A DNA stretch of 64,000 nucleotides, taken from the IMG/VR virus record IMGVR_UViG_3300008116_000002. The stretch is one strand, 5' to 3'. A program made the position numbers and the translations under genes. The notes beneath the pieces were generated by a model. That model was not told where the DNA came from and did no database searches. It saw only the letters and a list, made by a program, of their open reading frames with translations. Shown here one piece after another: positions 11,983-24,087 of the stretch. The first letter of the stretch is position 1. Every line of letters starts with the position of its first letter. Origin of the DNA: a virus (taxonomy: Duplodnaviria > Caudoviricetes).

Positions 11983-12165
11983 ATGGGAGAGAGTATTTTT
12001 TCGTTGTATGATATTATACAACTAGGTTTGATGCTTCTAGCTTGCTATTGTTGTAAGGCATATGGATACCAAAAAGGTATTGTGGACACGCTAGAATATT
12101 TTGAAAAGAGTGGAGTTATCGAAATCCCAACGGAAGAGCCAGTTGAGGAAAAGGAGAAAAATTAA
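11983..12165 (+). CDS. Small membrane protein
   Basis: SD AAAGGAG; one hydrophobic segment and an acidic tail. Confidence 0.6.
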   Translation: MGESIFSLYDIIQLGLMLLACYCCKAYGYQKGIVDTLEYFEKSGVIEIPTEEPVEEKEKN

Positions 12166-12206
12166 CAAACTGATAATATTAGCAAATCAACAATATTATT
12201 AAAGTG

Positions 12207-12242
12207 ATAATACCCTAGCGTTTCCCTAGGGTATTATTTTGG
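12207..12242 (+). terminator. Intrinsic terminator
   Basis: 12-bp stem ATAATACCCTAG/CTAGGGTATTAT, 7-nt loop, T run. Confidence 0.75.
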
Positions 12243-12256
12243 CTGGAAAAAAGTGC

Positions 12257-12285
12257 TTGACAAGATGACCATTTTGTGCTATAAT
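12257..12285 (+). promoter_or_regulatory. Strong sigma70-type early promoter
   Basis: TTGACA-17 bp-TATAAT with extended TG and an A-tract UP element. Confidence 0.88.
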
Positions 12286-12308
12286 TATGGTATAGTGAAA
12301 GGTCGGAT

Positions 12309-12683
12309 ATGAACTTTAATGTAGGACAAGACGTAGAGATCCAAACCAAGATGCGGTCACACCGACTTGGCGTGGACTATGACTATTCTACTTTTAAGGG
12401 TAAGGTGGTACCTAATCCTAAATGGATTGATTCGGATTACGTTTGTGTGTACACGGGCGAACCGAATTACCCGACCTCAGTAATTCATAAGAGATTTATT
12501 GTGGGACACGTGTTCTCACAAGCAAGAACGAACGAGCGTATATTTCAAGTTAAGTCCAAATCAAAGGGCAAGACATATATGGTCGTATCGAAGGGCGGGG
12601 CGATTACGTGCAACTGTACGGGGTTTGGTTTCCGTCGTAAGTGTAGCCATTCGGACAAAGTCCGTCAGCTTTTGGAAAAATAA
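12309..12683 (+). CDS. SWIM zinc-finger protein
   Basis: C-terminal CNCTGFGFRRKCSH (CxC...CxH). Confidence 0.8.
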   Translation: MNFNVGQDVEIQTKMRSHRLGVDYDYSTFKGKVVPNPKWIDSDYVCVYTGEPNYPTSVIHKRFIVGHVFSQARTNERIFQVKSKSKGKTYMVVSKGGAITCNCTGFGFRRKCSHSDKVRQLLEK

Positions 12684-12686
12684 TGC

Positions 12687-12715
12687 TTGACTTCTTGTCC
12701 ATATGGTTATATAAT
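12687..12715 (+). promoter_or_regulatory. Sigma70-type early promoter
   Basis: TTGACT-17 bp-TATAAT; shares TGCTTGAC and TATAATTATGGT flanks with the 12257 promoter. Confidence 0.85.
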
Positions 12716-12770
12716 TATGGTGTAGTAGTTGAAATTGATTCGTTTATTTTATATCATGGAGATCTAAATT

Positions 12771-13151
12771 ATGTCTAAATTTACAGTTGCAGGTGTTTCT
12801 ACTCAGAACGGTATCACTAAGGTTCGTTTCGCGAATGACATCGTGGCTCGCACCAAGCTGTTGTCCAAAGGTGGTCACTCTCCCCTAGAACTTGTTGAGC
12901 TGCCTAAGGCAATGACCAAGGCAGAAGCTTGTCAGTATCTGCTTGATCTAGGTGGCGTGTTTTCTAGTTACAAGAGTCTTATTACTGAGACCAAGGACAA
13001 GAAAAACGGTGTAGGTCCAGTCAAGGCACCGGCGGCAGTTAAGCCTAGTAAGGCTGCTAAGGTTACTAAGGCAAAGCCCACTAAGGTTATTGCACCTAAG
13101 GTGCAGGAAGAAGATCTTGAGATCACTGAGATCAAAGAACTGGCTGCATAA
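12771..13151 (+). CDS. Early protein with Lys/Ala/Pro-rich (histone-like) tail
   Basis: KFTVAGVSTQNGITKVRFAND...PVKAPAAVKPSKAAKVTKAKPTK; strong codon bias. Confidence 0.75.
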   Translation: MSKFTVAGVSTQNGITKVRFANDIVARTKLLSKGGHSPLELVELPKAMTKAEACQYLLDLGGVFSSYKSLITETKDKKNGVGPVKAPAAVKPSKAAKVTKAKPTKVIAPKVQEEDLEITEIKELAA

Positions 13152-13178
13152 ATAACCGGAAGGTGTTATGAAGTTGAA

Positions 13179-13200
13179 AGCGCCCTTCGGGGCGCTGTCT
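13179..13200 (+). terminator. UUCG hairpin terminator
   Basis: AGCGCCC-TTCG-GGGCGCT followed by T-rich sequence. Confidence 0.7.
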
Positions 13201-13224
13201 TGTCTTGTATAAAGGATGTTTTTT

Positions 13225-14034
13225 ATGGATGAATATTCAAATTTTTTACCTACGTATGGTATTGTTGGATTGGGGTTCGTAGGCTCTGCAGTTAAGCATT
13301 CAATGCAGGGCAGGGCTAATATTAAAGTAGTCGATGTTGATCCAACCAAATCTTCGCATAGTATAGAACAGTTAATAGATTGTGAAGGTGTTTTTGTTTG
13401 TGTACCAACACCTCAGGCAGATGATGGAGTGTGCGATACGTCAGCTTTAGAAGATGTTTTGACCAAATTAGAATACTACACCGGACCAATTATCAGTAAG
13501 TGTACTGCTCCCCCTGCTTTTTATAAAAAGTTGAGCGAGAAGTATATTAATCTGATCCATGCCCCAGAATTTCTAACTGCGGCAAATGCTAAGCAAGATT
13601 ATATATTAGGCACTTTTGCTATGATTGGCGGATCATCTAGTGCGTTTAGAGGTGAGGCGGAACGTATTATAAGAATTGGGCAAAAGAATTTAAAAGACGT
13701 TAGACATTGTAGTGTTGAAGAAGCAGCGTTGGCAAAGTATGGCATTAATACTTTTCTTGCAACCAAGATTGTGTTCATGAATGAAATGTATTTGCTTTGT
13801 GAAAAGACAGGAGTAGACTTTGATAAGGTTGCCGAGTTAATTAAACTTGATTCTCGTATTGGTTCTACTCATATGAAAGTACCAGGACCAGATGGCTTTG
13901 GTTTTGCAGGAATGTGTTTTCCTAAAGACACTTCTGCACTATATCATTATGCGAAATCAAATGGTATAGAAATGGAACATATGAAAAATGTAATTGAAGT
14001 AAACAAAAAGTTAAGAAACATCGGTAAAAACTAA
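13225..14034 (+). CDS. ugd: UDP-glucose/GDP-mannose dehydrogenase family protein (short form)
   Basis: GIVGLGFVG Rossmann motif, FVCVPTP, PEFL, KYGINTFLATKI, GFAGMCFPKD. Confidence 0.9.
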   Translation: MDEYSNFLPTYGIVGLGFVGSAVKHSMQGRANIKVVDVDPTKSSHSIEQLIDCEGVFVCVPTPQADDGVCDTSALEDVLTKLEYYTGPIISKCTAPPAFYKKLSEKYINLIHAPEFLTAANAKQDYILGTFAMIGGSSSAFRGEAERIIRIGQKNLKDVRHCSVEEAALAKYGINTFLATKIVFMNEMYLLCEKTGVDFDKVAELIKLDSRIGSTHMKVPGPDGFGFAGMCFPKDTSALYHYAKSNGIEMEHMKNVIEVNKKLRNIGKN

Positions 14035-14043
14035 GACTTACTG

Positions 14044-14051
14044 TATAAATA
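14044..14051 (+). promoter_or_regulatory. T4-type late promoter upstream of the tRNA-array leader
   Basis: Exact TATAAATA. Confidence 0.8.
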
Positions 14052-14072
14052 ATTGATACTTTAAGGAAACAA

Positions 14073-14177
14073 ATGTTTCATCTAATACAAAACCCCAGTG
14101 TAAGTTGCAAGTCATATGACAGACAGTCAGAGGCCTTTGCACGCACAAATATTCTATGGAGTTATATCGAGGGTTAG
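14073..14177 (+). CDS. Putative attenuator leader peptide (34 aa, contains all 20 amino acids)
   Basis: SD TAAGGA; MFHLIQNPSVSCKSYDRQSEAFARTNILWSYIEG*; last codons overlap an antiterminator strand. Confidence 0.75.
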   Translation: MFHLIQNPSVSCKSYDRQSEAFARTNILWSYIEG

Positions 14178-14204
14178 AGTATTAAAACGATACTAAGTTT
14201 TGAT

Positions 14205-14241
14205 AACCCTCGGCACTCACAAGGTCCCGAGGGTTTTTGTT
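14205..14241 (+). terminator. Intrinsic terminator/attenuator upstream of the tRNA array
   Basis: AACCCTCGG(14205-14213)/CCGAGGGTT(14227-14235) plus TTTGTT; the 5' arm can alternatively pair with CGAGGGTTA(14168-14176). Confidence 0.8.
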
Positions 14242-14277
14242 ATGAGGTGTTAACACTTTAATAAGTCAAAAAAGTGC

Positions 14278-14306
14278 TTGACACAGATACCAAGTTGTGC
14301 TATAAT
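14278..14306 (+). promoter_or_regulatory. Strong sigma70-type early promoter of the tRNA array
   Basis: TTGACA-17 bp-TATAAT with extended TG. Confidence 0.88.
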
Positions 14307-14384
14307 AAGCACATATTAAAGAAGTAGGCAATGCAAGACAGCGTTGCTTGTAGTAAATGTTATTTAACAATTTGTACTAGTTTT

Positions 14385-14461
14385 GCCCACTTAGCTCAGT
14401 CGGTTAGAGCACAATCTTGATAAGGTTGGGGTCCCTGGTTCGATTCCAGGAGTGGGTACCA
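14385..14461 (+). tRNA. tRNA-Ile(GAU)
   Basis: Cloverleaf, anticodon loop TTGATAA, encoded CCA. Confidence 0.95.
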
Positions 14462-14462
14462 A

Positions 14463-14538
14463 GTCCCATTCGTCTAGTGGCCTAGGACATCGCCCTTTCA
14501 CGGCGGTAACAGGAGTTCGAGTCTCCTATGGGACGCCA
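14463..14538 (+). tRNA. tRNA-Glu(UUC)
   Basis: Cloverleaf, loop CTTTCAC, CCA. Confidence 0.95.
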
Positions 14539-14581
14539 TTTGATATGCCGATTGAGAAATAGTACAGTCAACATATCAAAT

Positions 14582-14659
14582 GGTAAGGTGGCTGAGTGGT
14601 CCAAAGCAGCAGTCTGCAAAACTGTAAAGCCGCCGGTTCAAATCCGGCCCTTACCTCCA
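14582..14659 (+). tRNA. tRNA-Cys(GCA)
   Basis: Cloverleaf, loop CTGCAAA, U73 discriminator, CCA. Confidence 0.93.
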
Positions 14660-14664
14660 GATAA

Positions 14665-14739
14665 GGTCTCAAAGTGTTCATGGACGCACATATGCCTGTC
14701 ACGCATAAAGAAGGGGATCGTTACCCCTTGAGACCGCCA
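14665..14739 (+). tRNA. tRNA-Asp(GUC), atypical D and T loops
   Basis: Acceptor GGTCTCA/TGAGACC, loop CTGTCAC, G73, CCA; T loop reads GATCGTTA instead of GTTCGA. Confidence 0.85.
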
Positions 14740-14780
14740 GAACCCCCGGGATCCCTTACCCGGTAATATTACTAGGGGGT

Positions 14781-14946
14781 ATTGACAGCCACAATGTCAG
14801 GGTGTCGAGATCGGAGCTACCTCAAAACTCCTGGGAAGGAGTGACGAAAAGTCTCGAAGGACAGCGCTGCAACTGACCTTAATAAAAGCGGACGGACAGT
14901 GAAACAACTCAGGAAAGGGCGAGTGCTGGGTGCTCGTAGCTTTCCA
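14781..14946 (+). ncRNA. Putative structured ncRNA A ending in CCA
   Basis: GC-richer intergenic stretch with several stems; GAGCTAC/GTAGCTT helix followed by T-CCA; shares a GGACAG..AACAACTC.AG motif with ncRNA B. Confidence 0.5.
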
Positions 14947-14948
14947 TT

Positions 14949-15030
14949 GCCCATGTGGTGAAATGGTAGACACGCTTGCCTTAGGAGCAAGTACGAGAGT
15001 GTGGCGGTTCGAGTCCGTCCATGGGCACCA
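14949..15030 (+). tRNA. tRNA-Leu(UAG)
   Basis: Cloverleaf with variable arm, loop CTTAGGA, CCA. Confidence 0.93.
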
Positions 15031-15122
15031 TATTGAAGTGTTGTTTAGGGTGGCAGGTAAAAGTTTAACAAGACTTTGAGGGCTGGAATTCCCGATCTGT
15101 GAACAGCAGAACACTTCAATAT

Positions 15123-15197
15123 GGGGAATTGGCGTAATTGGGAACGCAGTAGCTTTGCAAGCTTCAGTCAGGAGTTCGAATCTCCTATTCTCCACCA
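15123..15197 (+). tRNA. tRNA-Ala(UGC)
   Basis: G3:U70 pair, loop TTTGCAA, CCA. Confidence 0.94.
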
Positions 15198-15204
15198 AAT
15201 ATTT

Positions 15205-15282
15205 CGGGGAGTAGCTTAGTCCGGTTAAAGCGCCTGCTTTGGGAGCAGGAGATCGAGAGTTCGAATCCCTCTTCCCCGACCA
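15205..15282 (+). tRNA. tRNA-Pro(UGG)
   Basis: Cloverleaf, loop TTTGGGA, CCA. Confidence 0.95.
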
Positions 15283-15289
15283 GTTTTAT

Positions 15290-15364
15290 TCCAGAGTAGC
15301 TCAGCGGCAGAGCCGCGGACTGTTAATCCGTTGGTCGTTGGTTCGATCCCAACCTCTGGAGCCA
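15290..15364 (+). tRNA. tRNA-Asn(GUU)
   Basis: Cloverleaf, loop CTGTTAA, CCA. Confidence 0.95.
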
Positions 15365-15370
15365 GTTTTA

Positions 15371-15455
15371 GGATGACGAGCAGCATTGGTGACTGCAGCA
15401 GACTGTAAATCTGTCGCCTCAGGCATACGGGGTTCGATTCCCTGGTCATCCACCA
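15371..15455 (+). tRNA. tRNA-Tyr(GUA)
   Basis: Cloverleaf with variable arm, loop CTGTAAA, CCA. Confidence 0.93.
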
Positions 15456-15458
15456 TAC

Positions 15459-15533
15459 GGGAGATTAGCTCAGTGGTAGAGCAGCGCCCTTACAAGGCGA
15501 AGGTCAATGGTTCGACCCCGTTATCTCCTACCA
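15459..15533 (+). tRNA. tRNA-Val(UAC)
   Basis: Cloverleaf, loop CTTACAA, CCA. Confidence 0.95.
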
Positions 15534-15541
15534 GATTTTAT

Positions 15542-15618
15542 CTGGCGTTAGCTCAGTTGGATAGAGCAACAGCCTTCTAAGCTGTGGGTCGGGGGTTCGA
15601 ATCCCTCACGCCAGGCCA
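15542..15618 (+). tRNA. tRNA-Arg(UCU)
   Basis: Cloverleaf, loop CTTCTAA, CCA. Confidence 0.96.
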
Positions 15619-15624
15619 TACAAT

Positions 15625-15698
15625 TGGGGATTAGTGAAATGGTATCACACCGGATTTTGATTCCGAGGTCGTAAGTTCGATTCTTACATCCCCTGCCA
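15625..15698 (+). tRNA. tRNA-Gln(UUG)
   Basis: Cloverleaf, loop TTTTGAT, CCA. Confidence 0.93.
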
Positions 15699-15730
15699 AA
15701 TCGTTATTAAAGTGTTAATAAAACAAATGC

Positions 15731-15759
15731 TTGACAAGAAATTGATTCGGTGTTATAAT
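15731..15759 (+). promoter_or_regulatory. Strong sigma70-type early promoter
   Basis: TTGACA-17 bp-TATAAT with extended TG. Confidence 0.88.
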
Positions 15760-15788
15760 TATGATATAATGTAAATAAGGAGATACAA

Positions 15789-15929
15789 ATGCAACGAAAA
15801 CGTATCGCCAAGCCCCGTAACCCGCTGGTGGCTTTGGCATTGTTTAAGAAAGCGGGTAAGCATCAAAAAACAAACAAAGCATTACGTAGGGAATATAGAG
15901 CGGGCATAGCTCAGTTGGTAGAGCAGTAG
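15789..15929 (+). CDS. Small Lys/Arg-rich protein whose stop lies inside tRNA-Lys (46 aa; missed by the ORF track)
   Basis: SD TAAGGAG; MQRKRIAKPRNPLVALALFKKAGKHQKTNKALRREYRAGIAQLVEQ*. Confidence 0.75.
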   Translation: MQRKRIAKPRNPLVALALFKKAGKHQKTNKALRREYRAGIAQLVEQ

Positions 15930-15975
15930 ACTTTTAATCTATGTGTCGTGGGTTCGAATCCCTCTGCCCGTACCA
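15900..15975 (+). tRNA. tRNA-Lys(UUU)
   Basis: Cloverleaf, loop CTTTTAA, CCA. Confidence 0.95.
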
Positions 15976-16056
15976 TATTAAAACACATTTCGAGCGGTGT
16001 TCCGATATCGGCCAGCCCGCCCCAAAGTAGATGTCTAGGGTAGTGTGTTTTAATAT

Positions 16057-16405
16057 GGTGAAGAAGCAAGGTTGGGATTTCGTCAGATAATGACGGTGCG
16101 CTGAAAAAACCCAGTAATGCGAAGCCGAAAGGCATCCTTGCGGTAAGCAGAAAGTTGGCGTGGCGACCAATCATCATAAAGTTCCGGTTACTACTTTCCT
16201 GAAAGTAGCGTATGGTAAACGAGAAAGTCCCGGTGGCTATGGCACCGTTAGCGAGACATAGACTCTGTATTTCGATGCGGTGTCTCCGGTGTCTCAGACA
16301 ACATAGCAACGTGGACACTACGCAGCAAACCGCTATTAGTGTTTGGACAGGGCAACAACTCCAGCATAGGGGCGATCTGTGGAAAGACGTGGCCTAAGCA
16401 AGAAT
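16057..16405 (+). ncRNA. Putative large structured ncRNA B (about 350 nt)
   Basis: Many stems in an AT-rich genome: GCAAGG/CCTTGC, CGTCA/TGACG, GCC-GAAA-GGC, CTACTTT/AAAGTAG, CGGTG/CACCG, GAGACA/TGTCTC with an inner UUCG hairpin; no credible ORF; flanked by tRNAs. Confidence 0.6.
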
Positions 16406-16410
16406 ACGAT

Positions 16411-16486
16411 GGTGTCTATAGTGTAGTGGTCTGCACGCCAGATTGTGGGCCTGGCAGTATGAGTTCAATCCTCATTAGACACCCCA
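16411..16486 (+). tRNA. tRNA-His(GUG)
   Basis: G-1 and C73, loop TTGTGGG, CCA. Confidence 0.9.
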
Positions 16487-16540
16487 AAGTTAATCGCGTG
16501 TGAGGCGTGGGGCTTCGGCCCCTAACCTATTTGTACTTGT

Positions 16541-16630
16541 GGAAGTGTGGCAGAGTCCGGTTTATTGCAACAGTCTTGAAAACTGTCGAACAGAAATGTT
16601 CCGTGAGTTCGAATCTCACCGCTTCCGCCA
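16541..16630 (+). tRNA. tRNA-Ser(UGA)
   Basis: Long variable arm, loop CTTGAAA, G73, CCA. Confidence 0.95.
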
Positions 16631-16643
16631 CTAAGGAGTAATT

Positions 16644-16793
16644 ATGCCAATGTATGAAACAACAGTAAGAACGCCACAGGGTGAAGTAAAAGATAGAGTG
16701 TTTGCAAAAGATTTACAAGAAGCAAGAATGCTTTTTGAACAAAGACACGGACCTAGAAACGTACCATATATACCTAAAGTAATTCCAAGTTAG
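16644..16793 (+). CDS. Small hypothetical protein (49 aa; missed by the ORF track)
   Basis: SD TAAGGAG; MPMYETTVRTPQGEVKDRVFAKDLQEARMLFEQRHGPRNVPYIPKVIPS*. Confidence 0.7.
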   Translation: MPMYETTVRTPQGEVKDRVFAKDLQEARMLFEQRHGPRNVPYIPKVIPS

Positions 16794-16805
16794 AAGGAGA
16801 AACAA

Positions 16806-17369
16806 ATGCCTGCAATTTTTTTAGTTAGTGATACTCATTTCGGCCATGCAGGCGTTTGTAAATTTCTACGTGACGATGGCACTAAATTACGTCCATGGGA
16901 TAACCCCGAGGACATGGATGAAGAAATGGTCAAGCGGTGGAATGAAACTGTTAGACCAAAAGATAAAGTTTATCATTTAGGAGATGTAGTTATTAATCGA
17001 AAGGCTTTAAAAACGCTTAGTAGATTAAACGGTGAAAAGGTCTTAATCAAAGGTAATCACGACATCTTTAAACTTGAAGAATACACTGAGTATTTTAAAG
17101 ATGTTCGAGGTTATCATGTACTGAATGGAATGATTCTAAGCCACATTCCTATTCATGAAGAAAGCCTTGCGAGGTTCGGGACTAATATTCATGGACATCT
17201 ACATTACAATCGTGTAAAGAAAAATGAAGTCATTGATCCTCGTTATCACTGCGTATGTGTAGAGCATACCGACTACCGCCCAATTCTTTTTGAGGATGTC
17301 ATTAAAAAGATTCAAGAAGAGGGTGGGCATATTGGATTTAAAAATGGCAATGGACCTATTATAGATTGA
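16806..17369 (+). CDS. Calcineurin-like metallophosphoesterase
   Basis: SDTHFGH, HLGDV, KGNHD, SHIP, IHGHLH motifs. Confidence 0.93.
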   Translation: MPAIFLVSDTHFGHAGVCKFLRDDGTKLRPWDNPEDMDEEMVKRWNETVRPKDKVYHLGDVVINRKALKTLSRLNGEKVLIKGNHDIFKLEEYTEYFKDVRGYHVLNGMILSHIPIHEESLARFGTNIHGHLHYNRVKKNEVIDPRYHCVCVEHTDYRPILFEDVIKKIQEEGGHIGFKNGNGPIID

Positions 17370-17379
17370 GGAGTTTGAA

Positions 17380-17586
17380 TTGAATACTAAGTTGAAAGCA
17401 ATTAAACAGACAGCTATGATGGTAGTTATCATATGTCTTATTCCTATGATTCTAACGTTTTTGTTTACTTCCGAGATAGCATCTTATATTTTTATCATAG
17501 GTATGGTAGCATTTTTTATATACATTATGTATTCTGTAAATCTAGCATTTATAGAATTTGAGGAAAAGTTTAAAAATAAGGAGTAA
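17380..17586 (+). CDS. Small two-TM membrane protein
   Basis: TTG start after GAGGAG; two hydrophobic helices. Confidence 0.55.
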   Translation: MNTKLKAIKQTAMMVVIICLIPMILTFLFTSEIASYIFIIGMVAFFIYIMYSVNLAFIEFEEKFKNKE

Positions 17587-17592
17587 GTATTT

Positions 17593-17687
17593 GGAGCGTT
17601 GGCCGAGTTGGTCGAAGGCACTTTCCTGCTAAGAAAGCATCTGGGCAAAAACCTGGATCATTGGTTCGAATCCAATACGCTCCGCCA
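17593..17687 (+). tRNA. tRNA-Ser(GCU)
   Basis: Long variable arm, loop CTGCTAA, CCA. Confidence 0.94.
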
Positions 17688-17692
17688 GCAAT

Positions 17693-17724
17693 GCCCCCGT
17701 AGTTTAATGGTAAAACAGCGGATT
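17693..17724 (+). pseudogene. Orphan 5' half of a tRNA, broken in the anticodon loop
   Basis: GCCCCCG-TA-GTTTAATGGTAAAAC-A-GCGGA-TT gives the 5' acceptor strand, D arm and 5' anticodon strand; no matching 3' half found; a late promoter follows directly. Confidence 0.75.
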
Positions 17725-17725
17725 G

Positions 17726-17733
17726 TATAAATA
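17726..17733 (+). promoter_or_regulatory. T4-type late promoter of the endonuclease gene
   Basis: Exact TATAAATA, then SD AAAGGAG. Confidence 0.8.
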
Positions 17734-17752
17734 ATAGTAAAGGAGAAATCTT

Positions 17753-18403
17753 ATGCTATTATGCAAATTTTGCCAAAAAGAATGTAAGAATGAAAACTCA
17801 TTGAGGAATCACAAGAGACTTTGTAAAGAAAATCCAAATAAACAACCACACCCTAAAGGTAATAGCGGAAAAGTTGGTTGGAATAAAGGGCTAACTGCAG
17901 AAACTGATGATAGAGTTTTTGCTAATAGAGAAGCTTTACGAAAACAAAGAAAAGAAAATGGTTCTAATTGGATAGGAAGAAAGCATTCAGATGAAACTAA
18001 AGAATTATTATCAATAAGAGCGTCTGAACGTTTATGTAAAAATTCAAAATACTCTATAAATTTTGAATATAAACCTGGAATCATATTAGAATCTTCATAT
18101 GAAGTTGAAACTGCTAAAATTTTAGATGAATTGAATATAGAATGGATTAAAGTTAGGACTGGTTATAAATGGGATGACAATGGAAAGATAAGAAGATATG
18201 TCCCTGATTTTTTCCTTCCGAAATATAACATATTTCTAGATCCAAAAAATGATTATTTGATTAAAAAAGACAAAATAAAAATAGATTCTGCAATGAAACT
18301 TAATTCAATAACTATTATTGTGTTATCAAAAGATGATTTGAATGTAGAATCTATAAAAAGTAAATTGCCTACCGTAGCTCAAGGAGAGCAGGGTGCCTTA
18401 TAA
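17753..18403 (+). mobile_element. Free-standing homing-type endonuclease (Zn finger + NUMOD3-like + PD-(D/E)XK-like domain)
   Basis: CKFC...H...C, GWNKGLT, GRKHSDETKELLS, SSYE...YVPDFFLPKYNIFLDPK; very AT-rich. Confidence 0.75.
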
Positions 18404-18457
18404 GCACTTCGACCAGATAAGTCCCAGGTTGTGGTTCGATTCCGCACGGTAGGACCA
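18368..18457 (+). tRNA. tRNA-Ile(UAU) with long variable arm
   Basis: Acceptor CCTACCG/CGGTAGG, A73, loop CTTATAA, T arm GGTTCGATTCC, CCA. Confidence 0.8.
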
Positions 18458-18459
18458 GA

Positions 18460-18534
18460 GGTAATGTAGCATAACGGTAGTGCACCGCCTTCATACGGCG
18501 CAAGGTATAGGTTCAAATCCTATCATTACCACCA
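18460..18534 (+). tRNA. tRNA-Met(CAU), probably elongator
   Basis: Paired G1:C72, loop TTCATAC, CCA. Confidence 0.85.
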
Positions 18535-18544
18535 TAGTTTCAGA

Positions 18545-18620
18545 CGCGGATTAGGGAAGAGGTCATCCCGCTAGGCTCATAACCTGGAGATCGCTGGTTC
18601 GAATCCGGCATCCGCAACCA
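18545..18620 (+). tRNA. Initiator tRNA-fMet(CAU)
   Basis: C1:A72 mismatch, CGCGG start, loop CTCATAA, CCA. Confidence 0.9.
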
Positions 18621-18628
18621 GTTTATAA

Positions 18629-19216
18629 ATGAATATGAAAATTTATGATAATGTTTTACCGAATCAAACTTTTTCTAATTTAAAAAATAGAATTTTTGAT
18701 TCCAATTTCCCTTGGTTTTTTAGTAGAACTTCTGTAGAAAATCCTATAGAGGATAATATTTTAACCTATAGTTTTTCTCATGCGGTTATGAATCACGGTG
18801 TGCCAAATTCTATAATATTTGACACAATTAATAGTTGCATCTTAACCATGTTAGATAATTGTAATATAAAACTAAATATGTTATTAAGTATTAGACTTGG
18901 ATTACTACAACCAGTGTCTAGAGAAAATCATAGTAATGATCCGCACGTGGATAGTCAAGAAAAACACAAGGTGGGTTTATTCTATTTAAATACTACAGAT
19001 GGCGCAACAACAGTATATAATGAAAAGTACGATCCTTCTACAAAGATGGATCCAACAGAATATTATAGATCGGTTCTAAATAGAAATCTTTCTATTCAGT
19101 CCAAAGTAGAATGCACTGAAAATAGATTAGTTATTTTTGATGGTATGTATTATCATTCAAGTACTACTCCTACCGATGTACCTAGGAGAGTAGCATTAAA
19201 TTTTAATTTTGTATGA
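18629..19216 (+). CDS. 2OG-Fe(II) oxygenase-like protein
   Basis: PHVD (HxD), LFYLNTTDGAT, ENRLVIFDG, HSS...RVALNFN double-stranded beta-helix pattern. Confidence 0.75.
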   Translation: MNMKIYDNVLPNQTFSNLKNRIFDSNFPWFFSRTSVENPIEDNILTYSFSHAVMNHGVPNSIIFDTINSCILTMLDNCNIKLNMLLSIRLGLLQPVSRENHSNDPHVDSQEKHKVGLFYLNTTDGATTVYNEKYDPSTKMDPTEYYRSVLNRNLSIQSKVECTENRLVIFDGMYYHSSTTPTDVPRRVALNFNFV

Positions 19217-19218
19217 TA

Positions 19219-19296
19219 CCGCCATTAGCTCAATTGGAATAGAGCGCAACGCTACGGACGTTGAGGTTAGGGGTTCGAGTCCTTTATGGCGGGCCA
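19219..19296 (+). tRNA. tRNA-Arg(ACG)
   Basis: Cloverleaf, loop CTACGGA, CCA. Confidence 0.94.
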
Positions 19297-19874
19297 GTTT
19301 CTGAAGGTGGAATTGCTATTAATTCTTCAATACCAAAGTAATAGTCTTTAAGAATTTCTGACATTAGATCGCATATTTTTATATTTTTTTCAAAACCAGC
19401 AAGATCATTTTTTCTACCTTCTATTTGCTTTTCAACAAGTTCAAGTATTAAATTTTTTCTTTTGGTTTTAGAATTTACTCGACGTAGTACTTGTTTTAAA
19501 TGTTCGAGATGAACATTACATACATTAATATTGTGGTGCATATCTGTTCGTATTTTTATAACCTCATCCTGCATTAGGACAATTAGATCATCTGTTTCTG
19601 GGTTTAAGTTAGGAACAAGTCTTGACACCATCTGAGAAATATGTTCTAATGCAGCATTGCGAAGAGTTAGATCTTCTGAGGACTCACCTAACAGATCAAA
19701 TTCTTTTCTTCGAATAGGATCGATTAGAATTTCATATGCAAGTTTAATACGAACGAATATTTGTTCATCCCCACCCTTGTCGGGATGATGCACTTGAGCC
19801 AATGAACGAAATTTTATTTTAATTTCTTCATCTGTTGCATCAATCGGAATATCTAATTCGATGTAAGGATTCAT
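19284..19874 (-). CDS. J-domain (DnaJ-like) protein
   Basis: NPYIELDI...FRSLAQVHHPDKGGD...AYEILIDPIRRKEFD. Confidence 0.9.
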   Translation of the reverse strand: MNPYIELDIPIDATDEEIKIKFRSLAQVHHPDKGGDEQIFVRIKLAYEILIDPIRRKEFDLLGESSEDLTLRNAALEHISQMVSRLVPNLNPETDDLIVLMQDEVIKIRTDMHHNINVCNVHLEHLKQVLRRVNSKTKRKNLILELVEKQIEGRKNDLAGFEKNIKICDLMSEILKDYYFGIEELIAIPPSETGPP

Positions 19875-19912
19875 GGCTATAAATTATTTTATAGTATTTA
19901 TTAGGAGATAGT

Positions 19913-20095
19913 ATGTCAGGAAAAGGATCTAAACCAAGACCATTTGCAATAACCAGGGAACACTTTGTAGAAAACTGGGATATGATTTTTAACAAAGAAA
20001 ACAATACTGGTACAGATAAAAATGAGTATCAAGACATTCTTTCAACCGAGGAAGCAGTATTATCAGCTTTCGAAAACTTAAAGGAAGTAAAATGA
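19913..20095 (+). CDS. Small hypothetical protein
   Basis: SD TAGGAG; MSGKGSKPRP...; ATGA-coupled to the next gene. Confidence 0.75.
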   Translation: MSGKGSKPRPFAITREHFVENWDMIFNKENNTGTDKNEYQDILSTEEAVLSAFENLKEVK

Positions 20096-20991
20096 ATCTC
20101 GCTGGTGTTAACGGCAGCATAGCGGTCTCCAAAACCGAAGGACGGGGTTCGAATCCCTGGCGGGGTGCCAAATATATTGCTCTACTACTTGCATTCGTAA
20201 CTTGCTTTGCGTCTGCGCATGAGCCTAAAAAGAAAAAGAAAAAGAAAGTAGTTACTGCGGAAACTGCAAGCTATGTGGTGTACAACAATACAAAAGATGC
20301 TTACGAGTATATTAGAGAAAAAGAAAAGGTTCGCCCAATAGCAAGTGTCACTAAGCTAATGACGGCAATGGTTGCTCTAAATTATGATTTGAATTTAAAT
20401 CGAGAACTTAAAATTCAATCTAAGGTAGGTGGGACTTTACCGAGAAACAAAAGTTATACTAGGCAAGAATTGTTTGGAGCAATGCTTGTTCGAAGTGATA
20501 ACTCCGCGGCAGAAACTTTGGCTAGTGATTTTCCTGGAGGTAGAGAAGCCTTTATTCGTGAGATGAATAAATTTGCAAACTATATCGGTATGCGAGATAC
20601 AAACTTCGATGATCCAACAGGACTGAGCGCTGCAAATACTTCGACAGCCACAGATGTTGCGGCGATGGTTGCACATGCAGCACAATATACTTTGATTCGA
20701 GAAACTAGTACAAAGAAGCAGGTTGAAATTGATACTCAATATAAGAGAAAAATTAGAAAACTTGTTTTAAACAATACAAACAAACCTGTTCTTTTTAACT
20801 TTGATGATATTGTCGTTAGTAAAACAGGCTTTACCTCCAGAGCAGGATATTGTTTGGCTTTGGCAGTTGAACGAAACAATCAAAGATATTCTGTAGTTAT
20901 TTTGGGTTCTAGAAATAAGCAAGCTAGAATTCATAAAGCCGAGGACATTTTGTATAATCATATTGCATACAAAGATATTGACACTAATTAA
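20092..20991 (+). CDS. D-Ala-D-Ala carboxy/endopeptidase (peptidase S11, PbpG/DacA-like), with tRNA-Trp nested in frame
   Basis: SxxK (SVTK), SxN (SDN), KTG motifs; signal peptide KYIALLLAFVTCFASA. Confidence 0.9.
   Translation: MNLAGVNGSIAVSKTEGRGSNPWRGAKYIALLLAFVTCFASAHEPKKKKKKKVVTAETASYVVYNNTKDAYEYIREKEKVRPIASVTKLMTAMVALNYDLNLNRELKIQSKVGGTLPRNKSYTRQELFGAMLVRSDNSAAETLASDFPGGREAFIREMNKFANYIGMRDTNFDDPTGLSAANTSTATDVAAMVAHAAQYTLIRETSTKKQVEIDTQYKRKIRKLVLNNTNKPVLFNFDDIVVSKTGFTSRAGYCLALAVERNNQRYSVVILGSRNKQARIHKAEDILYNHIAYKDIDTN
20096..20170 (+). tRNA. tRNA-Trp(CCA)
   Basis: Acceptor ATCTCGC/GCGGGGT, loop CTCCAAA, T arm GGTTCGAATCC, G73, CCA. Confidence 0.88.
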
Positions 20992-21006
20992 GAAAGAATA
21001 TATAAT
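20978..21006 (+). promoter_or_regulatory. Sigma70-type promoter
   Basis: TTGACA-17 bp-TATAAT. Confidence 0.8.
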
Positions 21007-21029
21007 TAGACTAGTTCAAAGGGGAAGTT

Positions 21030-21503
21030 ATGAGAAAAAAGTTGGACATTCAAGAAATCAAAAGTTTCATTGAATCGCAAAGCCCGGAAACTAAAATTTA
21101 TCTTGGAGCGGACTCTGAACGATATAAACATAATGGTAAATGGTATGCGGATTATACTATTGCAGTTGTAGTTCATATTGATGGTCGCCATGGGTGTAAA
21201 ATTTTTGGTGAGGTTCAAACTGAACTAGATTATGATGCAAAAAACAGCAAACCATCTATGCGTTTGATGAATGAGGTCTACAAGGTTGCAGAATTGTATC
21301 AAAAGATTGTGGATGTCGTCGAGGACAGACACGTAGAAATACATTTGGATATTAACCCAGATGAAAAACATAACAGTAGTATTGTGATTCAGCAAGCAGT
21401 TGGTTATATCAAAGGTATGTGTAATGTGGTACCTATGGTTAAACCAAAAGCATTTGCCGCAAGTTATGCAGCAGATAGACTTAAAGAATTGCTTGCAGCA
21501 TGA
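21030..21503 (+). CDS. RNase H-like YkuK-family protein
   Basis: IYLGADS, RLMNEV, EIHLDIN, VKPKAFAASYAADR. Confidence 0.8.
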   Translation: MRKKLDIQEIKSFIESQSPETKIYLGADSERYKHNGKWYADYTIAVVVHIDGRHGCKIFGEVQTELDYDAKNSKPSMRLMNEVYKVAELYQKIVDVVEDRHVEIHLDINPDEKHNSSIVIQQAVGYIKGMCNVVPMVKPKAFAASYAADRLKELLAA

Positions 21504-21508
21504 AATTC

Positions 21509-21582
21509 GCCCTCTTAGTTAAATGGTATAACAGTTGATTTGTAATCATCTATTGGCAGTTCGATTCTGTCAGAGGGCACCA
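21509..21582 (+). tRNA. tRNA-Thr(UGU)
   Basis: Cloverleaf, loop TTTGTAA, CCA. Confidence 0.94.
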
Positions 21583-21598
21583 TTTTAGAAAGGTCGGT

Positions 21599-21799
21599 AT
21601 GTTAGGATTGGAACAGGCAGGTGTATTTTTAGGAGCAACAATTCTTATTGGCTTTGGTATAGCATTTATTGGAATGGTTGTGATTTTTCTTAATAACATG
21701 ATTCATAGATTTTGGAAGCCGTTAAACTGGTTCGGAAAGTATTTTAACTTTAACGAGCCAACCAACCCTGAGCCTCCAAAAACTAAACCTTCATTATAA
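21599..21799 (+). CDS. Small membrane protein
   Basis: Single long hydrophobic helix; SD AAGG. Confidence 0.6.
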   Translation: MLGLEQAGVFLGATILIGFGIAFIGMVVIFLNNMIHRFWKPLNWFGKYFNFNEPTNPEPPKTKPSL

Positions 21800-21808
21800 G
21801 GAGTTTGT

Positions 21809-21961
21809 ATGCAAAAGGAATTACTAAAAGAAAATGGACCTAAGTGTGGTTGTGGTCGTAGCCCAAGTGGGTATTGCATTGGTTGGCATGGACTTTCTGA
21901 ATCGGAATATAAAGAGCGTTTGGAACAATACAAGCAAGATCTAGGCGAGAACGACAAATAA
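21809..21961 (+). CDS. Small Cys/His protein resembling a CDGSH iron-sulfur motif (50 aa; missed by the ORF track)
   Basis: SD TAAGGAG; KCGCGRSPSGYCIGWHG. Confidence 0.7.
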   Translation: MQKELLKENGPKCGCGRSPSGYCIGWHGLSESEYKERLEQYKQDLGENDK

Positions 21962-21971
21962 ATAGTTACAT

Positions 21972-22045
21972 GCGGGATTAGTTTAATGGTAAAACGAAAG
22001 CCTTCCAAGCTCTAATCATCGGTTCGATTCCGATATCCCGCTCCA
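21972..22045 (+). tRNA. tRNA-Gly(UCC)
   Basis: GCGGGAT acceptor, loop CTTCCAA, U73, CCA. Confidence 0.95.
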
Positions 22046-22049
22046 TAAT

Positions 22050-22337
22050 ATGCGTATTCAAAAAGATGAGACTTACGAGCAATGGTCAGAAAAGGTTCGT
22101 CTTTTTGAATATGGAGTTGCACTGCAAAGAATTGCTAAAGGCGACGATATAGATATTGTTTTGGAGTCTATGTCGAAAAAAATTAATCAAAAACTTTTGC
22201 ATCCTTTGATCGAAAGCATCAAACAATCATGTCAAATAGATTATGATCCTTTGATCGCAAGAAAAAATTACGAAGAAAATTACTTAGGAAAAGCAAATCC
22301 TGTAGCAGATCATATGAATGATGTAGACTTCTATTAA
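22050..22337 (+). CDS. Protein resembling the isolated dimerisation domain of glutamyl-tRNA reductase
   Basis: ALQRIAKGDDIDIVLESMSKKINQKLLHP resembles the HemA C-terminal A-L...G-E-D...L...NK-L-H-P pattern. Confidence 0.6.
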   Translation: MRIQKDETYEQWSEKVRLFEYGVALQRIAKGDDIDIVLESMSKKINQKLLHPLIESIKQSCQIDYDPLIARKNYEENYLGKANPVADHMNDVDFY

Positions 22338-22367
22338 TCACAAAGACCCCCTTAAACTTTGTGTCTA

Positions 22368-22375
22368 TATAAATA
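22368..22375 (+). promoter_or_regulatory. T4-type late promoter
   Basis: Exact TATAAATA, then SD AAAGGAGG. Confidence 0.8.
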
Positions 22376-22392
22376 GATATAAAGGAGGGTCT

Positions 22393-22821
22393 ATGATAGA
22401 TATTAATGAATTCATTAAAACTAGTAAACAAGAACGGCAATCTCATTTATTATTATCTGAAAAATGTATTGAACGTGGGGGAAATTCGACCAATCACAAG
22501 GGGGTATTAGCTCAGTATTTGAATACCTCTATCCCTTCGGGTAGAATACTTTTATGCCATGCGTGCAACAATGAAAAATGTAGTAATCCAAAACATTTAT
22601 ATTGGGGTACAGACAAAGAAAATATTACTGAAGATAATAAAAAATGGAAATCTGTTTGGGAAAGAACCATTGAAAAATATGGATATGAGGAAGCCTGCAG
22701 GATAAATTCTCGTAAGCAAATTGGAAACAAAAATGGTTCGGGCAATAAAGGTAAATCTAAAACTGAAGAACATAAAAAAAAGATAGCAAAGTCTATTAAA
22801 AGCAATTATAATAAGATGTGA
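22393..22821 (+). mobile_element. Homing-type HNH/His-Cys endonuclease with NUMOD3-like tail
   Basis: LCHACNNEKCSNPKHLYWGTDKEN; KGKSKTEEHKKKIAKS; own late promoter. Confidence 0.75.
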
Positions 22822-22831
22822 TGTATTTAAT

Positions 22832-22917
22832 GCGAGTGTGGTGGAACGGTATACACTTTGGACTTAAAATCCAACGCCCGTAAGGGATTGAGGGTTCAAA
22901 TCCCTCCACTCGTACCA
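22832..22917 (+). tRNA. tRNA-Leu(UAA)
   Basis: Variable arm, loop CTTAAAA, CCA. Confidence 0.95.
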
Positions 22918-22948
22918 GTGTTTTATATTTTTATTTTAAGGAGATTGA

Positions 22949-23485
22949 ATGAAAACAGTAGGTGATAAACTTGAATCATTTTCAGTTACCGGTGTTAATC
23001 CCGGTAAGGATGATTTCTTTACTATTACAGAAAAATCTTTTGAAGGTAAGTGGAAAGTAATTGTTTACTATCCAAAAGATTTTACATTCGTATGCCCAAC
23101 AGAAATCGTAGCATATGATAAATTGTTCCAAGACTTTGCAGATCGTGATGCAGTATTGTTGACAGGTTCAACAGATAATGAATTCTGCAAACTAGCATGG
23201 CAACGTAGTCATGAAGATCTTTCAAAGATCAAGCATATTCAATTTGCTGACACCGCACGTGAATGGGGCGTATCTTTGATCGAGCAATTGGGTGTGTTCT
23301 ACGCACCGGCAGGCGCAGCACTTCGTGCAACCTTTATCGTTGATCCAGAGAACACCATTCAGCACGTTACCGTAAACAACTTGAACGTTGGTCGTAGCCC
23401 AGAAGAAACACTTCGTATTCTTGATGCGCTACAAACTGGTGAACTATGTGCATGCAATCGCACAATCGGCGGAGAGACTCTATAA
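22949..23485 (+). CDS. ahpC: Peroxiredoxin AhpC
   Basis: YPKDFTFVCPTE peroxidatic Cys; ALRATFIVDP; GELCACN. Confidence 0.96.
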   Translation: MKTVGDKLESFSVTGVNPGKDDFFTITEKSFEGKWKVIVYYPKDFTFVCPTEIVAYDKLFQDFADRDAVLLTGSTDNEFCKLAWQRSHEDLSKIKHIQFADTAREWGVSLIEQLGVFYAPAGAALRATFIVDPENTIQHVTVNNLNVGRSPEETLRILDALQTGELCACNRTIGGETL

Positions 23486-24003
23486 TGACTGCTTGGGTAG
23501 ATACACTAAAAGAAGTAAGTATTCCTGAGTATGCCAAGGATACTAAACTTAATTTAGATGCGGTTATCAAACGTAGTTCACTACCCGCAGAAGAGGCGGA
23601 GGCAATTGCTCTTGCAGCTGCCTTTGCTACAGGTAATAGTAAACTATGGACATGGCTTCACGATCAACTTACAGATCGTAAAGAGGCAGATGCCGCTCTT
23701 ACCGCAGGCGCAATCATGGCACAAAATAATGTATGGTATCCATATGTTGAAATGGCAGATGATGCGAACCTAAAAGGTCTTCCTGCTCAACTTCGTATGA
23801 ATGCAATTGCAAGCCATGGTGGTACAACAAAGGCAAGGTTTGAAGCATATAGTCTTGCAGCAAGTATTGTGGGCAAGTGTCATTTTTGTGTAAAAGCGCA
23901 TTACGAAACTTTGAAGCAAGAAGGTTATACTGTAGAACAATTACGAGACATTGGTCGTATTGCTGCAGTAATGAAAAGTGTTGCAAGTGTTTTAGCTAAT
24001 TAA
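23485..24003 (+). CDS. ahpD: Alkylhydroperoxidase AhpD
   Basis: Start reassigned to the TAATG-coupled ATG; SIVGKCHFCVKAH; MAQNNVWYPY. Confidence 0.93.
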   Translation: MTAWVDTLKEVSIPEYAKDTKLNLDAVIKRSSLPAEEAEAIALAAAFATGNSKLWTWLHDQLTDRKEADAALTAGAIMAQNNVWYPYVEMADDANLKGLPAQLRMNAIASHGGTTKARFEAYSLAASIVGKCHFCVKAHYETLKQEGYTVEQLRDIGRIAAVMKSVASVLAN

Positions 24004-24010
24004 AGCACAA

Positions 24011-24087
24011 GGGCCGGAAGCTTAATTGGTATAAGCGTCCGACTCATAATCGGGGGACAGTGAGTTCGAGTCTCACCCGGCCCACCA
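24011..24087 (+). tRNA. tRNA(CAU), probably Ile2 (lysidine type)
   Basis: GACTCATAATC anticodon arm typical of Ile2, A73, CCA. Confidence 0.85.

Follow-up and report, generated by a model that had tools for sequence, protein, structure and literature searches.

What does a short open reading frame (ORF) that contains all 20 amino acids do between a phage late promoter motif and an intrinsic terminator, upstream of a large transfer RNA (tRNA) array? The question is raised by positions 14044 to 14241 of a stretch of 64,000 nucleotides (nt) from the Caudoviricetes virus record IMGVR_UViG_3300008116_000002, which was analyzed at its full length and is named the window hereafter. Analysis of the window and comparison with its relatives show the ORF, its composition, two mutually exclusive RNA structures, the conservation and co-variation of these structures, and their position before tRNA arrays. 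We propose that the element is a ribosome-mediated transcription attenuator whose leader tests nearly the whole tRNA and amino-acid supply, a reading to which we assign a probability of about 75%; with it, the phage would probably make extra tRNAs only when ribosomes read slowly.

A preliminary description of this locus had named a promoter motif, a Shine-Dalgarno sequence, a 34-codon ORF with 20 amino acids, a terminator and an early promoter, and all the elements that it named were found in the window sequence where it had placed them. Together with the additional structures, the locus shows the following features:

14044-14051, + strand: TATAAATA, T4-type late promoter motif for the leader transcript, whose start is expected near 14058
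14063-14067, + strand: Shine-Dalgarno sequence AAGGA, 5 nt upstream of the ATG
14073-14177, + strand: leader ORF, with the ATG at 14073 and 34 codons followed by TAG; 20 of 20 amino acids, 26 distinct codons
14106-14141, + strand: two-tier hairpin within the ORF (outer TGCAAG/CTTTGCA, inner TGAC/GTCA; −9.7 kcal/mol)
14167-14189, + strand: antiterminator 5' strand, made of the final three codons, the stop codon and 12 nt past the stop
14196-14213, + strand: antiterminator 3' strand, of which 14205-14213 doubles as the terminator 5' arm
14205-14241, + strand: intrinsic terminator, with a G+C-rich stem (14205-14213/14227-14235) and then TTTTTGTT
14278-14306, + strand: consensus sigma-70 promoter (TTGACA-17-TATAAT with a TG extension), downstream of the terminator
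14385-24087, + strand: tRNA array, the predicted regulated target, with 25 tRNA genes of 19 amino-acid specificities and small ORFs interspersed

The leader ORF lacks runs of regulatory codons and most of the 20 residue kinds are present only once or twice. As previously described, its codons include both Arg boxes (AGA and CGC), both Ser boxes (AGT and TCA) and the three Ile codons (ATA, ATT and ATC). By analogy with the T4-like gene set of the window (regA, gp43, UvsX and gp41), a gp55-type factor is predicted to use TATAAATA at 14044. The sigma-70 promoter at 14278 would provide an ungated, early entry into the array, which shows further sigma-70 promoters inside. A single leader stands ahead of the bulk of this array.

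The last codons of the ORF (CGAGGGTTA, 14168-14176) had been reported as a perfect complement of 9 base pairs (bp) to the 5' arm of the terminator (TAACCCTCG, 14204-14212). This complement is exact, and it is part of a larger two-part hairpin of 16 bp, in which 14167-14189 pairs with 14196-14213. In the window, the antiterminator hairpin has a folding energy of −18.7 kcal/mol (z −5.3), and its duplex of −19.1 kcal/mol has eight of the 16 bp outside the terminator stem (p=0.002 in relation to shuffled sequences); the terminator has −17.5 kcal/mol (z −4.3). Both structures use 14205-14213 and are mutually exclusive, and folding of the whole leader RNA alone prefers the antiterminator form.

The model that we infer from these features involves translation of the ORF, efficient termination, switching between the two structures, a pause of the polymerase at the internal hairpin and slow decoding as physiological trigger. 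RNA polymerase would start near 14058 from the late promoter at 14044 and produce a transcript carrying the 34-codon ORF, and the hairpin at 14106-14141, a possible RNA polymerase pause hairpin, may hold the polymerase until a ribosome loads. The last codons, the stop codon and the following 12 nt would form the 5' strand of the hairpin that sequesters the terminator 5' arm. A ribosome located at the stop codon while the polymerase makes 14205-14241 would cover 14167-14189, the terminator would form and the transcript would end before the tRNAs. If the ribosome waits within roughly the first 28-29 codons, or if there is no translation, the antiterminator would form first and the polymerase would enter the array. 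Nearly every amino acid has one or two codons in the ORF, and Arg, Ser and Ile are each represented by both of their isoacceptor boxes, so that late tRNA synthesis would rise whenever almost any tRNA became scarce, was cleaved or stayed uncharged. The product tRNA would close the loop, and since the products are tRNAs, the circuit would be a feedback loop on decoding capacity.

How often does a complete amino-acid set appear by chance? The probability of finding 20 amino acids in 34 codons is 3e-4 under the amino-acid usage of the phage, and the leader is the only ORF with 20 kinds among the 226 window ORFs of 29-42 residues (about 0.1-0.2 expected), which answers the check on random ORFs that the preliminary description had suggested. 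The composition of the window leader is by itself suggestive, not decisive, and becomes compelling only together with that of the relatives. There, 59 distinct leaders of 29-43 codons were found in uncultured relatives, nearly all of them preceding tRNA arrays: 20 amino acids are present in 38 of them, 19 in another 20 and 18 in one, in relation to about 15 kinds in random ORFs of leader size. A full set would be expected in 0.5% (33 residues) to 4.4% (41 residues) of sequences with uniform amino-acid usage, and in 0.16-1.3% with the pooled composition of the leaders themselves.

The main family, with 23 peptides and a mean identity of 44%, allowed a comparison that takes the alignment into account. 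Shuffling within alignment columns gave 1.2 full sets (maximum of 6 in 5000 shuffles) versus 16 observed, and the mean number of kinds was 19.65 in the observed peptides versus 17.67 ± 0.20 after shuffling. Shuffled sets lose kinds because residues are retained while their places shift: the single His occupies at least eight alignment columns, the single Val at least nine, Asp seven and Cys three, and Phe relocates when the usual Phe is lost. Isoacceptor coverage points in the same direction. Both Arg boxes are covered in 22 of 26 leaders (13.6 expected), both Ser boxes in 25 (16.9 expected), and ATA plus ATY in 20 (10.0 expected); coverage of both Leu boxes, in 12 of the 26, is not above the 13.0 expected. 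These results support the view that the leader has been selected to contain every, or nearly every, amino acid.

As controls we used the mostly unrelated phages returned by a scan for CC-type terminators and by a 15-nt class C pattern; none of 288 ORFs located just ahead of 206 mostly unrelated terminators contained 20 kinds. All ORFs of up to 45 residues with 20 kinds upstream of CCCTCGG-type terminators precede tRNA arrays. Five non-leader ORFs with 20 kinds were found among 2716 ORFs, one of them in L001, and at least two (in L095 and L079) overlap tRNA genes. Another two are versions of an ORF of 37-39 codons with 20 amino acids in the 385-nt spacer between tRNA-Glu and tRNA-Cys of two relatives (L093:4972-5085 and L112:11099-11218); no terminator was seen behind it in either of them, and it is probably a chance frame, an example of a false positive.

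The 59 leaders were divided in six sequence classes: the main family, A, B, C, D and L053. Classes beyond the main family were recovered by scanning for the terminator stem alone. Class A contains L139, L219, L120, L122 and L123; class B contains L193, L211, L442, L443 and L447; class C contains 24 versions, with a different array order which starts with Gln; class D contains L230, and the distant class contains L053. Peptides of the six classes are mutually unalignable, and the layout is common to all. In syntenic relatives, TATAAATA, a short ORF, a terminator and one or two sigma-70 promoters precede the first tRNA, and the leaders are followed by syntenic arrays (Ile-Glu-Cys-Asp-Leu-Ala-Pro...) of 20-28 tRNAs. 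A start codon that opens a frame of 29-43 codons is kept in 59 of 59 versions, usually behind a Shine-Dalgarno sequence, and purine-rich Shine-Dalgarno sites are found at the same place in most relatives. Furthermore, despite complete sequence turnover, the end of the ORF is always located within or beside the antiterminator 5' strand.

The alternative structures are also kept across classes. The terminator stem is conserved or co-varies in every class: it varies across class C (CCCTCGG, CCCTCTG, CCCTCTA, CCCCGA and CCCCAAGA), and main-family terminators with three or two C residues are accompanied by GAGGGTT or GAGGTT, respectively, at the end of the ORF. The position of the antiterminator relative to the stop codon is kept among relatives, and in a search from the start codon to the arm, the best complement of the terminator 5' arm sits on the last codons or the stop codon in 20 of 26 leaders. 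In 34 of the 36 leaders tested, the antiterminator helix runs at least 3 bp beyond the terminator stem (p≤0.05 in 26), which matters because the terminator imposes no constraint on this part. Class-specific extensions of the antiterminator reach 13 bp in L053, 19 bp in L214 and 17 bp, with a bulge, in L174. Class C helices range between 10 and 20 bp with p≤0.015 in each of 30 sequences (24 distinct peptides), and they show compensatory swaps such as GGTAAG/CTTACC versus GGAAAG/CTTTCC. The preliminary description had suggested looking in relatives for short ORFs that keep amino-acid coverage and antiterminator pairing despite divergent peptides, and this is what the six classes show, with 19-20 kinds and co-varying pairs. 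The recurrence of the ORF, start signals, terminator and stop-overlapping antiterminator in all of them supports the interpretation of the element as an attenuator.

Leader-peptide attenuation has its classical examples in the trp, his, leu and pheA leaders; the thr leader senses Thr and Ile, and the ilvGMEDA leader senses Ile, Leu and Val. With these leaders, the phage element shares a short ORF with start signals, a terminator, an antiterminator 5' strand that would be masked by the ribosome finishing the ORF, and a hairpin within the leader that could pause RNA polymerase. However, it has neither runs of one to three regulatory amino acids nor a 1:2 anti-antiterminator, and it precedes tRNAs rather than biosynthetic enzymes. 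The T-box leaders found upstream of Gram-positive aminoacyl-tRNA synthetase genes recognize a single uncharged tRNA by direct binding, independently of translation. The phage element resembles them in a terminator/antiterminator decision that would report tRNA charging, but its conserved feature is the ORF, and a search of Rfam at E≤10 gave no T-box match.

Among published systems, the closest is that of whiB7/wblC in Actinobacteria, in which a fairly long and diverse upstream ORF (uORF) is followed by an intrinsic terminator and an antiterminator that is alternative to it. Efficient translation of the whiB7 uORF leads to termination and stalling leads to read-through, and whiB7 is induced by knock-down of tRNAs, synthetases and many amino-acid pathways (PMC10274678). 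Which starvation is sensed depends on the amino acids of the uORF, and removing its sole Trp codon or its His codons blunts the matching response (PMC10274678). The uORF of Mycobacterium smegmatis contains every residue but Cys, and whiB7 uORFs are 25-40% Ala and often miss several residues (PMC10274678). These results indicate that the principle of sensing set by composition is feasible. The phage leaders have no sequence relation with them and, in contrast, are compositionally flat (pooled Ala of 4.6%), with 19-20 kinds in 29-43 codons kept through sequence turnover; furthermore, their target is a tRNA array instead of a WhiB-like transcription factor, and their promoter is phage late and/or sigma-70. 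A literature search found no description of attenuation control for phage tRNA genes or for any tRNA genes. To our knowledge, leader-peptide attenuation has been described in amino-acid operons, in some synthetase genes and in stress regulators, whereas tRNA genes are not among its known targets, and we know of no described leader that is kept complete for the amino-acid alphabet. The element appears to be a variant of leader-peptide attenuation which is new in its composition and in its tRNA target.

How complete the sensor would be depends on where a stall can be reported. We defined the sensing zone as the codons at which a stalled ribosome leaves the antiterminator free, with the structure starting 9 or 12 nt ahead of the A-site codon; a stall at codons within or just before the antiterminator strand therefore cannot be reported. 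With 9 nt, the zone has a mean of 18.5 kinds in 30 codons, with 20 kinds in 12 of 57 leaders and at least 19 in 31.

Several observations weigh against the attenuator reading, or against its near-universal scope. With the strict 12-nt footprint, the mean falls to 17.8 kinds and only two of the 57 leaders hold 20 kinds in the sensing zone. In the window, the sole Gly codon is the last codon, outside the zone, and the sole Trp codon is at its border. The near-universal tRNA sensor of the preliminary description thus stands for the ORF, with its 20 kinds, but not for the zone, which has 18-20 kinds and in the window does not sense Gly; the sensor is nearly complete, not perfectly complete. Exact matches between leader codons and array anticodons amount to 15 of 33 in relation to 14.3 ± 2.5 expected, a chance level; the earlier remark that the leader matches most anticodons of the array carries no information, and a tuning of leader codons to the array was rejected. 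The window leader has two Phe codons, yet no tRNA-Phe was found in the window, and arrays behind Val-less leaders do contain tRNA-Val. In relation to the structure, no 1:2 pairing that could act as anti-antiterminator was found, unlike in trp: the internal hairpin at 14106-14141 is clear of the antiterminator strand, and therefore an untranslated leader should read through. A weak AACCC/GGGTT pairing of this type, spotted by eye, was set aside as too short. The antiterminator is weak in a few relatives (L111, p=0.5; L105, p=0.3). Finally, leaders of the same class share ancestry and their counts are not independent events; the independent evidence is the six classes and the residue relocations.

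The RNA evidence counts, weakly, on both sides. It consists of lake metatranscriptomes kept as assembled contigs, with exact or near-exact pieces of the locus. Three contigs (14147-14306, 14218-14368 and 14221-14383) cross the U-run upstream of the sigma-70 start site, and one matches 14106-14240 and diverges exactly past the U-run; no contig was found over 13357-14105. These contigs are weakly consistent with both terminated and read-through leader transcripts, at a depth of 2-6 and with DNA carry-over possible. Upstream of the leader, a Lys/Ala-rich ORF of 126 residues (12771-13151), with no family in PHROGs, is matched exactly by metatranscriptome contigs from four RNA runs (12728-13157 and similar) and is, the tRNAs aside, better represented than any other part of the 5-kb stretch.

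A further candidate rule, that a residue absent from the leader marks a tRNA absent from the array, was rejected: it is true only for Phe-less L084 and L095/L108, and fails for the window, for Val-less L091, L107, L174, and for L219. Two of these relatives show a 79-nt gene called tRNA-Tyr(GTA) by ARAGORN (L084:6720-6798 and L219:7987-8065), which is the second Tyr gene of each array and occupies the place of the tRNA-Phe(GAA) of relatives after tRNA-His; the window has neither gene there. This extra tRNA-Tyr may reflect an anticodon switch or a miscall.

Some of these observations also fit an attenuator that responds to the state of translation in general (available ribosomes, speed of elongation, its coupling to transcription, or translation inhibitors) and not to individual tRNAs, its ORF being a representative codon sample, as proposed for whiB7/wblC. 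Read-through would be the default without translation, given the lack of an anti-antiterminator; leader codon choice mirrors the ordinary usage of the phage, residues missing from leaders do not track missing tRNAs, and the whiB7 uORF answers many stresses (PMC10274678). However, a representative sample would give about 15 kinds in 33 codons and not 19-20, selection for completeness is indicated by the relocation of single Cys, His, Val, Phe and Trp codons and by the coverage of both boxes of Arg, Ser and Ile, and the downstream genes are tRNAs. We consider this alternative unlikely, and a leader that samples nearly every tRNA remains the preferred reading.

The preliminary description had restricted the gate to late transcription of the array. 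The late motif is present in the window and TATAAATA is upstream of every main-family and class A leader extracted, an extraction which was itself anchored on TATAAATA; in L082, of the main family, no exact TATAAATA was found within 260 nt upstream of the terminator. L053, L230 and several class C members show a sigma-70 promoter and TATAAATA in tandem, while class B and some class C members show only a sigma-70 promoter, with the ATG sometimes at the predicted transcript start. An additional sigma-70 promoter is usually found downstream of the terminator in relatives, as in the window. The gate is predicted to act on late transcripts in the window but not to be limited to them across the group, because a sigma-70 promoter also, or alone, drives the leader in some relatives. 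In several relatives (L084:3101-3130, L095:6607-6636, L403 and L336), the leader ATG is located 6-9 nt past the −10 element (TATAAATA or TATAAT), and their leaders would be translated from leaderless or near-leaderless transcripts.

The count of TATAAATA in the window is not over-represented (nine found, 10 expected). All but one of the nine are on the + strand, and most are 15-30 nt ahead of start codons, including those of tail-fibre-like genes (43267). Two copies inside the tRNA array, at 17726-17733 and 22368-22375, precede the ORF 17753-18403 and an HNH endonuclease (22393-22821), respectively.

The attenuator reading may be extended to a more specific trigger, which we put forward tentatively and regard as less likely than not to hold. 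The leader would be a sentinel for attack on the tRNA pool: if a host anticodon nuclease or infection-induced decay removed any tRNA species late in infection, the ribosome would stall and the late promoter would remake the phage tRNA set. If true, the phage would possess a counter-defence circuit that regulates itself, and this would be the first case of tRNA genes under attenuation control. Attenuation by decoding speed as such would mean that phages regulate their tRNA supply by direct feedback; it would explain late expression of large phage tRNA arrays without waste, and it would connect these arrays mechanistically with the depletion of host tRNAs and with defence systems that cleave tRNA. 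At about 200 nt, the element is compact, and it is made only of universal parts (promoter, ORF and hairpins), so it is testable in vitro and in Escherichia coli, and it could report decoding stress in general, whichever single tRNA or amino acid is affected.

The strength of the RNA structures raises the question of whether the frame is incidental to a non-coding structured RNA, such as a processing site, a small RNA or a stabilizing 3' structure for upstream late mRNAs with an insulating terminator. Conservation of the structures is strong, the terminator loop GTACCCCTAAAGTC is kept to a degree that a terminator does not need, and translation of the ORF is predicted from its sequence. However, a frame of 29-43 codons is kept in all 59 versions and ends in or next to the antiterminator 5' strand, amino-acid completeness would be meaningless in an untranslated RNA, and the element has no match in Rfam: apart from tRNA itself, no family reaches its gathering threshold in the search at E≤10, and the best one is His_leader with 18.8 bits versus 49 (E 1.3). 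A purely non-coding role is, in our view, highly improbable.

With regard to the loop itself, these 12 nt are almost invariant in the main family though the ORFs are only about 44% identical (L088:7415-7450; alignment columns 191-217), and the window and class A show a different loop (CACTC...). The main-family loop could be a protein-binding site or take part in a tertiary contact.

The hairpin within the ORF was analyzed in 24 relatives. It pairs in 85.6% of cells, versus 26-43% with slid partners; for the inner helix the figure is 95.8%, and three of its four pairs show double changes. The window shows GAC/GTC in place of GGC/GCC, with changes of Gly to Asp and Pro to Ser, and retains the base pair; since two residues are swapped and yet the pair is kept, the RNA and not the peptide is constrained at this hairpin. 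Whole-ORF folding energy is unremarkable in any class (z −2.5 to +0.9), and therefore an internal pause hairpin is supported for the main family only. That the locus is simply a small late gene for a functional peptide of 34 residues, placed before an ordinary terminator, with the full amino-acid set and the complement as coincidences, is scarcely credible: T4-like phages have many small late ORFs and the main-family motif Cys-Lys ... Ala-Phe-Ala-Arg ... Trp is fairly conserved, but its conserved codons coincide with this co-varying hairpin, in which the window changes residues and keeps the pair, six unalignable peptide classes still keep 19-20 kinds and the RNA layout, and the antiterminator passes beyond the terminator stem with compensatory changes.

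The window belongs to a T4-like phage with a G+C content of 37%. It carries regA, a gp43-type DNA polymerase, UvsX and a gp41-type helicase in T4-like order, followed by tail-fibre-like genes. Its DNA polymerase is about 48% identical to those of cyanomyoviruses, and many uncultured IMG/VR contigs encode a DNA polymerase with 73-83% identity; leaders in synteny, ahead of Ile-Glu-Cys-Asp... arrays, were found in many relatives of this group. No cultured relative with the leader was found: blastn of the window leader region matched only tRNAs, blastn with class B and class C leaders gave zero matches, and the upstream UDP-glucose-dehydrogenase-like protein gave matches of up to 35% identity, from which no viral loci were obtained. 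The leader is lacking in related lineages with reduced arrays, such as L002, L004 and L005 (the closest polymerase relatives of the window) and L017 and L041, and large tRNA arrays of unrelated phages were found without it.

Within the array of the window, a sigma-70 consensus promoter (15731-15759) is located upstream of a 46-codon basic ORF (15789-15929), whose last codons enter tRNA-Lys. A similar peptide running into tRNA-like sequence is found in L002 and L004 (L002:19650-19920), both without leader.

The 4-kb region 12000-16000 is covered 85-97% in 14 DNA runs of separate studies, mostly freshwater; the phage lineage is therefore widespread, and the leader family is abundant in lake metagenomes. 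Several of these 14 runs are labelled fungus metagenome, and the rest are labelled freshwater or lake water.

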